Assembly: GCA_964457305.1 (NCBI GenBank)
Contig: CAYWEH010000002.1
Span: 1-63,737 of the forward strand
From: an uncultured Gammaproteobacteria bacterium
GTDB taxonomy: Bacteria > Patescibacteriota > Patescibacteriia > SBBC01 > JACPUP01
DNA: 63,737 nt
Reading direction: 5' to 3'
Shown in pieces: positions 42,978 through 45,890 of this stretch (the stretch's first letter is position 1; every line of letters starts with the position of its first letter). The position numbers were made by a program, and so were the translations under genes. The notes beneath the pieces were generated by a model. It was not told the DNA's origin. It made no database searches and saw nothing but the letters and a program-made list of their open reading frames with translations.

Positions 42978-45890
42978 CTAGATTTCTGTCAGTCGTTTTT
43001 CAGTATCCATAAGCCTTGCTTCGGCTTGCGCGCGGATCTGATTAGGCAGTCGGGTATTTTTGAGCTGCTCGCGGAGCCGCTTTGCATATCCCTCCAAGTT
43101 CGCCCGCTCTTTTTTCCGCCAGTCCTCGAAGGCCTGGACGCGTTCGGCTGGAAATTCTGCTTTCAGAGAACCCAGCGTGACGACGGCGCCCGCTTGCTTC
43201 CCTTGGAGTGAAACGCCGGAAAGTTTTTCCAGCATTGGCAGATTTGTCGCCGGACCTTTCGTACGAATGGCCCCACGATCTTCGGCGGTCAGGCCGCTGT
43301 ATTTCTTGAAGTTCCGCAGGGCGATGACCGTGCGTTGCACGTCTGCAAACGCGCGCTCGGCCGTTGCGTTCCGGGCCCCCGGCTTCGGCCATGACTGGAT
43401 GATGAGCATCCCCTCTCTTGCCGGCCGCTGCCAGAGCTGTTCGGTGACGAAGGGCGCAAACGGATGCAAAAGGCGGAGGAGTGTGTTGAACACCGACAGC
43501 AGCACCTGGTCGTTCTTCTCGACTTTATGGATTTCCAGATACCAATCCGCGAATTCGTGCCAGGCAAAATCTTCCAGCAGCTGTCCGGCTGCAGAAAAGT
43601 CGTAGTGCTCGATTGCGGCCGTCACGCCCTTCGTCACGGCTGCCAGCCGCGACAGAATCCATCTATCGGCCAGTGTTTTGGGGCGTAGGGCGTAGGGCGT
43701 AGGGGAGGAAAAACCTTTTTCACTAAGCCCTGTACCCTGTGCCCCGTACCCTGTGCCCTGGCGCACATACTGCCCGATGTGCCAGAGTTTGTTCACGAAG
43801 TTGCGCTGTCCGGCAATCTTCGCCTCGTACATGCGGAAGTCCTGACCGACGGATTGTCCGATGACGAGCGACAGACGAATGGCATCAGTGCCGTACTTTT
43901 CCGTCATGACCAGAGGGTCAATGCCCGTCCCCCTTGACTTCGACATCTTCTTCCCCTGTTCGTCGAGGATGAGGCCGCTCAAGTAGACGGTCCGGAAAGG
44001 AACTTCACCGGTGAGGTAGAGGGAGAGCGCGAGCATGCGAGACACCCAAAAGGTGAGGATGTCCCACCCCGTTTCCATCACTGACGTCGGGTGGAAGCGT
44101 TTGAGGTCGCCCCTTTTCACCTTCCCCCTTTGGTTGCGCGGCCAGCCGAGCGTCGAGAACGTCCAGAGGCCGGAAGAGAACCAGGTGTCGAGGACGTCTT
44201 CGTCCTGGACGAAGTTTTTTCCCCCGCAGACTGGGCAGCGGGGCGGCCGAGTACTCGAGACGACGATTTCACCACAGCCGGGGCGCCCACGGCGCTTGGC
44301 GCTCACGCGGTACCGGTAGATCCAGACCGGAGTGTCAGCCGAAACCTTCTGGTCGGGGGAGTGGCGCCGCAGCCGCTGGATGGCATGGGCCCGAGTCCAC
44401 CGCCCCGGGTGGTGGGTTCGGTCAACGAGCGGTAGGTTAGCGACAGTGCTCCGTTCGACGCTCGTGATTGTTGCGAGGCCAATAACCCGTTTTGATTTAC
44501 TCTGGACGAGCGTGACGACGTCACCGACGCGGAAGCCGTGGTCGCGCAGCCGCCAGGTGGTCGTTTTCCCTCGTTGCAGGCGCGGGGTGACGTCTGGGGC
44601 AAAGCCCATCCGCTTCACGTCGGATGAGCCGCAGTACCAGATCGGAATCCGGTGCCCCCACCATAACTGACGGGAGATGCACCAGTCCTGGATGTTCTCG
44701 GTCCAATGGAAGTACTGTTTCTTGAAGCGTTCGGGAAGAATTGCTACCCTGCCGGATTTCACCGCCGCCACCGCTTTCTGCGTCAGTGGTTTCATCTTCA
44801 CAAACCACTGTTTCGAGAGGAGCGGTTCGATGGTGGTGCCGCAGCGGTCGCAGATGGCCACGGCGTTGCGGTGGTCTTCGGCTTTCAGGAGGTTCCCGTC
44901 GCGGTTTAACGCTTCGATGACGAGCGTCCGTGCTTCGTGGATCGGCATCCCTTCGAAGTCCCGGCCGGCGTCCGCGGTCATAAGGCCGTCTGGGCCGATG
45001 ACCGTGATGGCGCGGAGGTTGTGTGTCTTGCCGATTTCCGCGTCGAGAAAGTCGTGCGCCGGGGTCACCTTCACCGCCCCCGTGCCGAAATCTTTCTCCA
45101 CGCGGTGATCAGCGATGATCGGCACTTCGCGGTTCACGAGTGGCACGATTGCTATTCGACCGATCAGGTCTTTGAAGCGCGCGTCTTTTGGGTTGACCGC
45201 AATGGCCGTGTCGCCGAGGAGCGTTTCCGGGCGGGTCGTGGCGACCGTGATCGAGTGCGGGGTTTTCTTGACTCGGTACTGGATGTACCAAAGCGACCCG
45301 GCGCGTTCCTCGTGCTTCACTTCGAGGTCGGAGAGCGCAGTCTGGTCGGTCGGGCACCAGCTGATGAGTCGTTCGGCGCGGTATAGGAGCCCGTCCTCGT
45401 AGAGCCGGACGAATGCCGCCTGGACTGCGGCGGTCAGGTCTTGGTCCATGGTGAAGTGCTCTCTCGACCAATCGCACGACGCGCCCATGCTCCGGATTTG
45501 TTTGGTGATGGTGTCGCCGTATTTCTTTTTCCACACCCAGACGTGCTGCAGGAATTGTTCACGACCGATCTCGTGTCGGGAAATGCCGTTCTCCGCGAGG
45601 CTCTGCTCGACTTTAATCTGCGTGGCGATGCCCGCGTGATCGGTCCCGGGAACCCAGAGCGCCGCGTCGCCAAGCATCCGGTGGTAGCGGATCATCAAGT
45701 CCTCGAGCGCAACGTGGAGCGCGTGGCCGATATGGAGGTCGCCGGTGACGTTCGGCGGCGGCATCGAGATGGTAAAAGACTTCCCTCGTTTCCTTGGGAG
45801 TTTGTCTGGATTGAAATACTGAGACGCTTCCCAGCGACGGTAGATGTCGGACTCGACGAGCTTTGGGTTGTAGGCGGCTGATTCGCTCAT
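42978..45890 (-). CDS. valS: Valine--tRNA ligase with two lineage-specific insertions
   Basis: PPPNVTGDLHIGHAL, TDHAGIATQ, WCISRQLWWGHRIP, QDEDVLDTWFSS, KMSKSRG, and a C-terminal coiled coil. At 970 aa it is about 90-100 aa longer than typical. Confidence 0.95.
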   Translation of the reverse strand: MSESAAYNPKLVESDIYRRWEASQYFNPDKLPRKRGKSFTISMPPPNVTGDLHIGHALHVALEDLMIRYHRMLGDAALWVPGTDHAGIATQIKVEQSLAENGISRHEIGREQFLQHVWVWKKKYGDTITKQIRSMGASCDWSREHFTMDQDLTAAVQAAFVRLYEDGLLYRAERLISWCPTDQTALSDLEVKHEERAGSLWYIQYRVKKTPHSITVATTRPETLLGDTAIAVNPKDARFKDLIGRIAIVPLVNREVPIIADHRVEKDFGTGAVKVTPAHDFLDAEIGKTHNLRAITVIGPDGLMTADAGRDFEGMPIHEARTLVIEALNRDGNLLKAEDHRNAVAICDRCGTTIEPLLSKQWFVKMKPLTQKAVAAVKSGRVAILPERFKKQYFHWTENIQDWCISRQLWWGHRIPIWYCGSSDVKRMGFAPDVTPRLQRGKTTTWRLRDHGFRVGDVVTLVQSKSKRVIGLATITSVERSTVANLPLVDRTHHPGRWTRAHAIQRLRRHSPDQKVSADTPVWIYRYRVSAKRRGRPGCGEIVVSSTRPPRCPVCGGKNFVQDEDVLDTWFSSGLWTFSTLGWPRNQRGKVKRGDLKRFHPTSVMETGWDILTFWVSRMLALSLYLTGEVPFRTVYLSGLILDEQGKKMSKSRGTGIDPLVMTEKYGTDAIRLSLVIGQSVGQDFRMYEAKIAGQRNFVNKLWHIGQYVRQGTGYGAQGTGLSEKGFSSPTPYALRPKTLADRWILSRLAAVTKGVTAAIEHYDFSAAGQLLEDFAWHEFADWYLEIHKVEKNDQVLLSVFNTLLRLLHPFAPFVTEQLWQRPAREGMLIIQSWPKPGARNATAERAFADVQRTVIALRNFKKYSGLTAEDRGAIRTKGPATNLPMLEKLSGVSLQGKQAGAVVTLGSLKAEFPAERVQAFEDWRKKERANLEGYAKRLREQLKNTRLPNQIRAQAEARLMDTEKRLTEI
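43680..43760. repeat. 81-bp in-frame heptad-repeat palindrome-like element inside valS (G-tract arm / A+T core / C-tract arm)
   Basis: GGGGCGTAGGGCGTAGGGCGTAGGGG (43680-43705), then aggaaaaacctttttcactaag, then CCCTGTACCCTGTGCCCCGTACCCTGTGCCC (43728-43758). It encodes QGTGYGAQGTGLSEKGFSSPTPYALRP. Confidence 0.85.

Follow-up and report, generated by a model that had tools for sequence, protein, structure and literature searches.

What occupies the enlarged zinc knuckle of the valine--tRNA ligase (ValRS) encoded on contig CAYWEH010000002.1, and what might it contribute to that enzyme? The stretch analysed (positions 1 to 63,737 of the contig, hereafter called the window) belongs to assembly GCA_964457305.1, a Patescibacteria genome listed here as G000. 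Its valS open reading frame (ORF) covers positions 42978-45890 on the minus strand, on which all features located below also lie. A preliminary description, made from the letters of the window, had placed an ASCH/PUA-like domain in this gene at 44280-44630. The placement was borne out, with the extra residues running from 421 to 538 (118 aa; 44277-44630), and the segment proved to be an entire ASCH domain of the YqfB-like kind, housed within the CP3 subdomain of the single ValRS that the cell encodes. The strings quoted for it, RLQRGKTTTWRL, HPGRW and CPVCGGKNFVQDEDVLDTWFSS, were likewise found where the description had put them.

Its position in the sequence identifies the host segment as CP3, a subdomain that class Ia synthetases carry as a peripheral connector and that varies between species in topology and zinc site (PMC7191050). 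The stretch from WGHRIP to DVLDTWF was taken from the ValRS genes of 40 relatives. It spanned 148 residues in the window ValRS, in the family relative G001 (L002) and in P0002, as against 23-43 residues in 27 other aligned ValRS from the same order and class that have no nested domain, and the zinc-knuckle region is thus as unusually long as had been claimed. Relatives with a zinc knuckle and no insert showed the pattern Y-C-x2-C-x12/13-C-x2-C (for example, YCIACDTPVASIKEPKTKCRRC), whereas the window ValRS reads Y-C420-[118 aa]-C539-x12-C552-x2-C555, an arrangement common to seven of seven full-length, cysteine-bearing ValRS with an insert of the clade termed type A below. The first zinc-knuckle cysteine, C420 (44631-44633), immediately precedes the insert, and its WYC context was kept in all cysteine-bearing relatives. 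C539 directly follows the insert, and the remaining knuckle, C539-x12-C552-x2-C555 (44226-44276), has the canonical spacing of the insert-free relatives. Taken together, the cysteine patterns with and without the insert indicate that the ASCH domain stands in for two residues inside the first CxxC. The same segment in other class Ia enzymes, such as the isoleucyl-tRNA synthetase (IleRS) and ValRS of T. thermophilus, likewise runs from the CP2-CP3 linker (..SRQ..WG) to the second half of the Rossmann fold and carries a four-cysteine knuckle, but no described CP3 holds a whole enzyme-type domain between both cysteines of one CxxC. Within the order of the window genome (L003-L019), the CP3 zinc knuckle has all four cysteines in family f2 and none in family f3 (VWYRTVDGKQEVKVSTTKPGPTWTQDE type); the latter indicates that CP3 zinc binding is dispensable within one order.

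The identity of the insert was not evident from direct scans. A Pfam scan of the insert with hmmscan gave no PF04266 match at E <= 10, and together the Pfam and NCBIfam scans returned no ASCH model, only faint matches to DUF3850 (E 0.24), End_beta_barrel and zinc ribbons. The End_beta_barrel matches, which recurred across the family at E 0.0005-0.03, were set aside as noise from a similar beta-hairpin. A word-indexed homology search with the insert returned one relative, and an exhaustive HMMER search was required to reach the family: phmmer against 1.84 billion representative proteins recovered 28 relatives, among them stand-alone proteins of 98-146 aa (E 1e-7 to 1e-4) and another ValRS, P0018, described below. 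Seven stand-alone relatives were scanned, and all passed PF04266 at 27-47 bits (cut-off 21.2). As a non-circular control, a hidden Markov model (HMM) was built from 29 stand-alone relatives only; it matched ValRS residues 426-529 with 46.2 bits (E 2.5e-10 for a million-sequence database), and among 2000 shuffled versions of the insert the highest score was 5.2 bits. A profile of 25 family members matched Escherichia coli YqfB across its full length (E 1.1e-5).

Structure prediction gave the same answer. The AlphaFold2 model of the insert was a compact beta-barrel of six strands and two helices, with a mean predicted local distance difference test (pLDDT) score of 88.5 and a predicted TM score of 0.79. 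When this model was compared with the PDB using Foldseek, 22 of the 22 top matches were ASCH-fold proteins. The first was YqfB (9kyf_B; E 4.8e-6, target-normalised TM 0.79, root-mean-square deviation 2.3 A), followed by L. crispatus ASCH, ZmASCH, PF0455, EF3133 and PH0355. The domain core, as delimited by the stand-alone-only HMM, the family profile and the structural comparisons, is a barrel with two helices at residues 426-529 (44304-44615), consistent with the PUA-like fold of about 100 residues that defines the superfamily. These results support membership of the ASCH superfamily (PF04266, PUA-like clan) by fold, motif and homology that is transitive through the stand-alone proteins. The preliminary description had proposed an ASCH model search and an AlphaFold prediction as checks on its domain call, and both came out in its favour: the matching model was the one built from stand-alone relatives, and the segment was predicted to be folded and not disordered.

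The host is an ordinary ValRS. The 970-aa product matched NCBIfam NF004349 at 982.7 bits (cut-off 704) and TIGR00422 at 923.1 bits (cut-off 612.1), above the curated threshold, and carried the Pfam domains tRNA-synt_1 and Anticodon_1. The match was full length, the CP1 editing domain was present, and the HIGH (residues 53-56; 45723-45734) and KMSKS (residues 648-652; 43935-43949) motifs were intact, while the match to every ValRS model was interrupted at about residue 423 and restarted at about 551. No second valS was encoded in the genome (882 kb, 98% complete), and as the sole ValRS the enzyme must function with the insert present. Another extra stretch, YVRQGTGYGAQGTGLSEKGFSSPTPYAL, lies in frame in valS at 43686-43769 (residues ~708-735), and a BLASTP alignment showed it to be mostly missing in the close homologue P0002.

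An insertion in an essential gene could in principle be an artefact (a chimeric assembly) or a selfish element (an intein or a recently inserted mobile element), and that circumstance is all that speaks for such an origin, which we consider effectively excluded. The insert is in frame and was found at the same site in independent assemblies, including G001, P0002 (on a 441-kb contig), P0003 and others. It has an ASCH fold, its G+C content equals that of the rest of valS, and no DNA repeats bracketing it were found beyond short chance-level matches. The gene-like G+C content and the absence of flanking repeats point to an old, assimilated feature and not to a recent mobile insertion. An intein was rejected specifically: Pfam detected no Hint or intein domain and, by inspection, the segment ends in ...GRPG-C and not in a C-terminal His-Asn and is shorter than mini-inteins.

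We then considered whether the domain retains the residues on which YqfB depends. The G-K-x-x-T-x-R ... GD pattern reported in the preliminary description is a true ASCH motif, read in the window as G441-K442-T-T-T445-W-R447 (44550-44570). It corresponds to the semi-conserved G-x-K-x-x-[T/E]-x-R octapeptide of the ASCH superfamily, here in the YqfB-type 'GKTR' form with the glycine one residue nearer the lysine. K442, T445 and R447 were invariant in 25 of 25 aligned family members, and in the family profile alignment they fall on the YqfB catalytic residues Lys21, Thr24 and Arg26. A fourth invariant residue, D490 (44421-44423), lies opposite YqfB H70 in a gapped stretch of the profile alignment. 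These four residues were invariant even though the ValRS backbones were only 42-51% identical; the mean column identity of the 25-sequence alignment was 48%. In YqfB, K21A, T24A and R26A are inactive, E74A cuts kcat 100-1000-fold, D27, H70 and Y89 are also conserved in its clade, and the best substrate is free N4-acetylcytidine (ac4C) (PMC6972931). More broadly, a 2026 preprint reports removal of ac4C from tRNA by 19 of the 19 ASCH proteins it examined, with the motif lysine and Thr/Glu as the crucial residues (bioRxiv 10.64898/2026.02.27.708502).

The helper residues of the YqfB clade gave a different result, as counterparts of Glu74, Tyr89 and Asp27 were not conserved. The Tyr89 column holds S511 and the Asp27 column L448, and no acidic residue was found at or beside the Glu74 column of the window domain (H493-H494-P495-G496). 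There, H493-H494-P495 (44406-44414) replaces the G-H-E of stand-alone relatives, with the glutamate changed to proline here and to K, A, R or T in other type-A domains; the histidines lie near the YqfB His70 region, where the alignment is gapped. On this alignment, the core motif is intact and the YqfB-specific helper residues are not kept. E. coli YqfB (PDB 9KYF/9KYH/1TE7) is thus the best match in profile and fold, with about 100 aa and the same beta-barrel, but overall identity is 17-18%, and YqfB is a stand-alone protein of net charge -7. The nested window core, in contrast, has a net charge of +13 (isoelectric point 11.8); the median among stand-alone relatives is -2. The 120 residues of the insert carry +17 compared with +19 for the other 850 residues of the enzyme.

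The loss of the Glu74, Tyr89 and Asp27 counterparts, together with a composition in the window copy that is atypical for the family, would suit a catalytically dead appendage or relic, kept since its precise excision from the zinc knuckle is hard and supplying only bulk or generic charge. We consider this improbable. A relic would not be expected to hold K, T, R and D invariant across deep divergence at the column identity given above or to yield so confident a predicted fold, and the evolutionary data below also bear on it.

Alignment and a domain tree split the family into two types. Type A (consensus MGFHE..GKTKTYRLRDH..D-x2-H-[GYH]-x-T-Y) formed one clade, with 99% support in the SH-like approximate likelihood ratio test and a stem length of 0.51, and the window domain falls inside it. 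Type B (consensus MKTLKF..GKTxTWRLDDK..GHExF..YY) comprises the Patescibacteria stand-alone ASCH proteins (PF04266), which are direct sequence relatives of the window domain and share its invariant K/T/R/D residues and domain length. They differ from it in keeping G-H-E and Y-Y-P, in their median charge of -2, and in occurring either as free proteins of about 110-130 aa or as fusions with RNase H, HD or methyltransferase domains. Type-A domains, by comparison, were found in the ValRS zinc knuckle or fused to NUDIX, His_Phos_1, L32e, L23, an S4-domain protein or an SRP54-type (FtsY-like) GTPase, and were rarely free. Type A is therefore a distinct ASCH clade almost always attached to translation proteins.

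Several observations accompany this division. The type-A fusions to L32e, L23, the FtsY-like SRP54 GTPase, the S4-domain protein, NUDIX and His_Phos_1 (P0009, P0010, P0012, P0015, P0004 and P0007) all lie on short contigs from metagenomes, with an archaeal source probable for some of them. L32e is restricted to archaea and eukaryotes, and its fusion to type A points to archaea. By eye, a His_Phos-like stretch precedes the GTPase in the FtsY-like fusion. Type-B fusions included RNase H-like proteins in three genomes (L037, L052 and L054), an HD phosphohydrolase (L045) and an S-adenosylmethionine-dependent methyltransferase (L051). One locus (G068:C2:112833-114183; L046/L059) held three tandem ASCH genes in 1.4 kb, with TAG in frame in one of the three, and the ASCH copy of G289 has six in-frame TAA codons and is probably a pseudogene.

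Synthetases were entered more than once. Two more copies nested in synthetases are among the outgroups closest to type A. One, in a ValRS (L025; G040:C5), occupies ORF residues 503-612 at a second site, between STLGWP and FHPTS; it retains G-H-E and leaves the CP3 zinc knuckle intact. The other, in the leucyl-tRNA synthetase (LeuRS) L042 (G380:C111), is a type-B-like ASCH domain (PF04266, 43.4 bits) at the start of CP1, at residues 256-355, with junctions NWIGKSEG..[ASCH]..VFTTRVDT and an editing-domain HMM match of 197 bits. With nested copies in ValRS CP3, at the second ValRS site and in LeuRS CP1, ASCH domains have entered class Ia synthetases at no fewer than three sites. The CP3 site itself looks like an insertion hot spot. 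The 1062-aa zinc-less ValRS P0018 has a 272-aa CP3 insert with two tandem ASCH domains (21.2 bits, the Pfam threshold, and 43.4 bits). Two further aligned ValRS from class-level relatives, L024 (G035) and L030 (G028), have a His_Phos_1 domain (103 and 143 bits) nested at the same WGHRIP/DTWF site, and the ValRS P0019 holds both ASCH and His_Phos_1.

The history of the insert was traced with a ValRS tree from which the insert was masked (37 sequences, 794 columns). The window ValRS, G001 and P0002 formed a clade with 100% support, sister to an insert-free family that retains the zinc knuckle. Across the tree, the type-A bearers required at least four gains or losses, at least two of them forced by strong branches. 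A single origin of insert-bearing ValRS was accordingly not supported, and the data do not distinguish an ancient gain with several later losses from recurrent gain or recombination. Insert and backbone identities co-varied (r = 0.72), with the insert 54-58% identical in two independent assemblies; within the family, identity was 56-58% for the insert and 68-69% for the backbone. Overall, the insertion is old, has co-diverged with ValRS, and has been lost or moved repeatedly. The faster evolution of the insert relative to the backbone and the fact that sister lineages thrive without it are what one might expect of a relic. Against this stand the co-variation of the two identities and the tree, in which at least two to four events show that the insert can be lost or gained, so that its retention is not forced. 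The phylogenetic spread that the preliminary description had proposed to map is therefore that of an insert kept within one ValRS lineage and recurring in other Patescibacteria ValRS.

The substrate question turns partly on whether these organisms make ac4C. Neither TmcA (PF13718) nor TmcAL (PF05636) was detected in G000 or in any of the 401 genomes (401/401) of an even sample of the phylum, with positive controls, and the phylum seems to be without both known tRNA ac4C writers. The idea of an ac4C eraser acting on the cell's own tRNA is weakened by this result. The absence of a writer counts instead for a salvage enzyme housed in a permissive CP3 loop, an ac4C amidohydrolase that would recycle host-derived free nucleosides to cytidine independently of charging, with ValRS merely an essential, constantly expressed host protein with an insertion-tolerant loop. 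In a phylum with no writer any ac4C would be exogenous, and free ac4C is the preferred substrate of YqfB. The use of the CP3 site by His_Phos_1 in L024, L030 and, alongside ASCH, P0019 would also follow, as would the fusions to NUDIX, His_Phos_1, HD and RNase H and a sporadic, accessory distribution. In all four genomes with a nested copy, moreover, the nested ASCH was the only one, as though it had replaced a stand-alone gene. We nevertheless regard salvage, the main rival of the reading placed first below, as somewhat unlikely. Type A is a separate long-branch clade without the 'H-E' glutamate that stand-alone, enzyme-like type B retains, and loss of that residue in YqfB (E74A) has the kinetic cost given above. 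In the window copy, a counterpart of Tyr89 is also missing and the charge is extremely basic, which sets this copy apart from YqfB and from stand-alone ones, and salvage would leave the repeated use of RNA-binding translation hosts unexplained.

The reading that we tentatively place first, with its function predicted from these comparisons, is that ValRS delivers a tRNA-directed module for binding or de-acylating cytidine. The synthetase would act as an RNA-binding platform that presents the small ASCH domain to the tRNA it holds, and the K442/T445/R447 pocket would either bind a tRNA-Val cytidine or remove the acyl group from an N4-acyl-cytidine in that tRNA. In the window lineage, the domain may also have become a strongly basic surface that would add tRNA affinity. 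This reading is supported by the RNA-binding translation proteins that serve as type-A hosts and by the extreme basicity of the window core (+13). The ASCH copies at the second ValRS site and in LeuRS CP1 add to this link with translation, and the invariance of K442, T445, R447 and D490 speaks for constraint on the domain. The long branch of type A and its loss of the glutamate suggest a functional shift, and the missing YqfB general-acid glutamate, together with the lack of a detectable ac4C writer, makes binding or recognition somewhat likelier than classical ac4C erasure. Small archaeal ASCH proteins deacetylate tRNA, and strong tRNA binding by them needs an added helix-turn-helix (HTH) domain (bioRxiv 10.64898/2026.02.27.708502). 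The archaeal ASCH with a C-terminal AAAD_HTH described in that work resembles the window protein in coupling a small ASCH barrel to a tRNA-binding module, but there a small HTH is fused end to end, whereas the window protein pairs the barrel with an entire synthetase and holds it inside a loop of that enzyme.

A number of observations weigh against a tRNA-directed module. ASCH domains occurred in 27 of the 401 phylum genomes, leaving 374 without any copy, and synthetase-nested copies in only four; the remaining phylum copies were free or fused to RNase H, HD or methyltransferase. Sister families have a ValRS without the insert, and the domain is in this sense dispensable. Nucleotide hydrolases (NUDIX, His_Phos_1, HD and RNase H) are frequent among the ASCH fusion partners, a pattern in better agreement with free-nucleotide metabolism, and the CP3 loop houses a histidine phosphatase in other lineages. 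The residues at the Tyr89, Asp27 and Glu74 columns of the window domain and the absence of TmcA and TmcAL belong here as well, and positive charge alone is no predictor of nucleic-acid binding by ASCH domains (bioRxiv 10.64898/2026.02.27.708502). CP3 is variable and peripheral and is not known to contact tRNA. Position, by contrast, speaks for the module: the CP2-CP3 linker IQDWCISRQLWWG (residues 400-412; 44655-44693) ends eight residues before the insertion point, and its counterpart in yeast IleRS lines the pocket that binds the tRNA 3' end (PMC7955072). The nearness of insert and linker, however, is one of eight residues along the sequence only, and that the pocket faces the tRNA is a prediction.

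A broader form of the tRNA-directed proposal is that Patescibacteria class Ia synthetases carry a built-in N4-acyl-cytidine eraser, repair enzyme or reader that acts on the tRNA during charging. We hold this to be doubtful. With no known ac4C writer, its target would be an unknown N4-acyl mark or damage, such as a CCA-end cytidine acylated by an aminoacyl-adenylate. If true, type A would be a specialised, translation-bound version of this activity, with ValRS as its bacterial carrier and, in ultra-small archaea, ribosomal proteins and FtsY.

Whether the layout is new depends on the sense of the word. The searchable literature contained no paper on ASCH domains in synthetases, or in CPR or DPANN organisms, that describes the ValRS-nested arrangement. 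A whole enzyme-type domain within one CP3 CxxC, drawn from a clade that is elsewhere joined to ribosomal proteins and FtsY, was not described in any paper found. The 'new architecture' of the preliminary description stands to that extent, but the arrangement is not unique and recurs in the phylum. The part in tRNA discrimination or editing that the description suggested for the insert is conjectural.

For the synthetases themselves, the finding indicates that a CP3 zinc knuckle accepts a whole domain between its CxxC cysteines, which is relevant to both the evolution and the engineering of these enzymes. ASCH domains have only recently been proposed as tRNA ac4C erasers, and how such small barrels find RNA is a question that this locus touches. 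The phylum-wide lack of known ac4C writers sharpens the choice of substrate to exogenous nucleosides, an unknown mark or binding only. An ASCH domain built into a synthetase, with relatives in ribosomal proteins, FtsY and LeuRS, would offer a testable link between tRNA charging and the de-acylation or recognition of cytidine.

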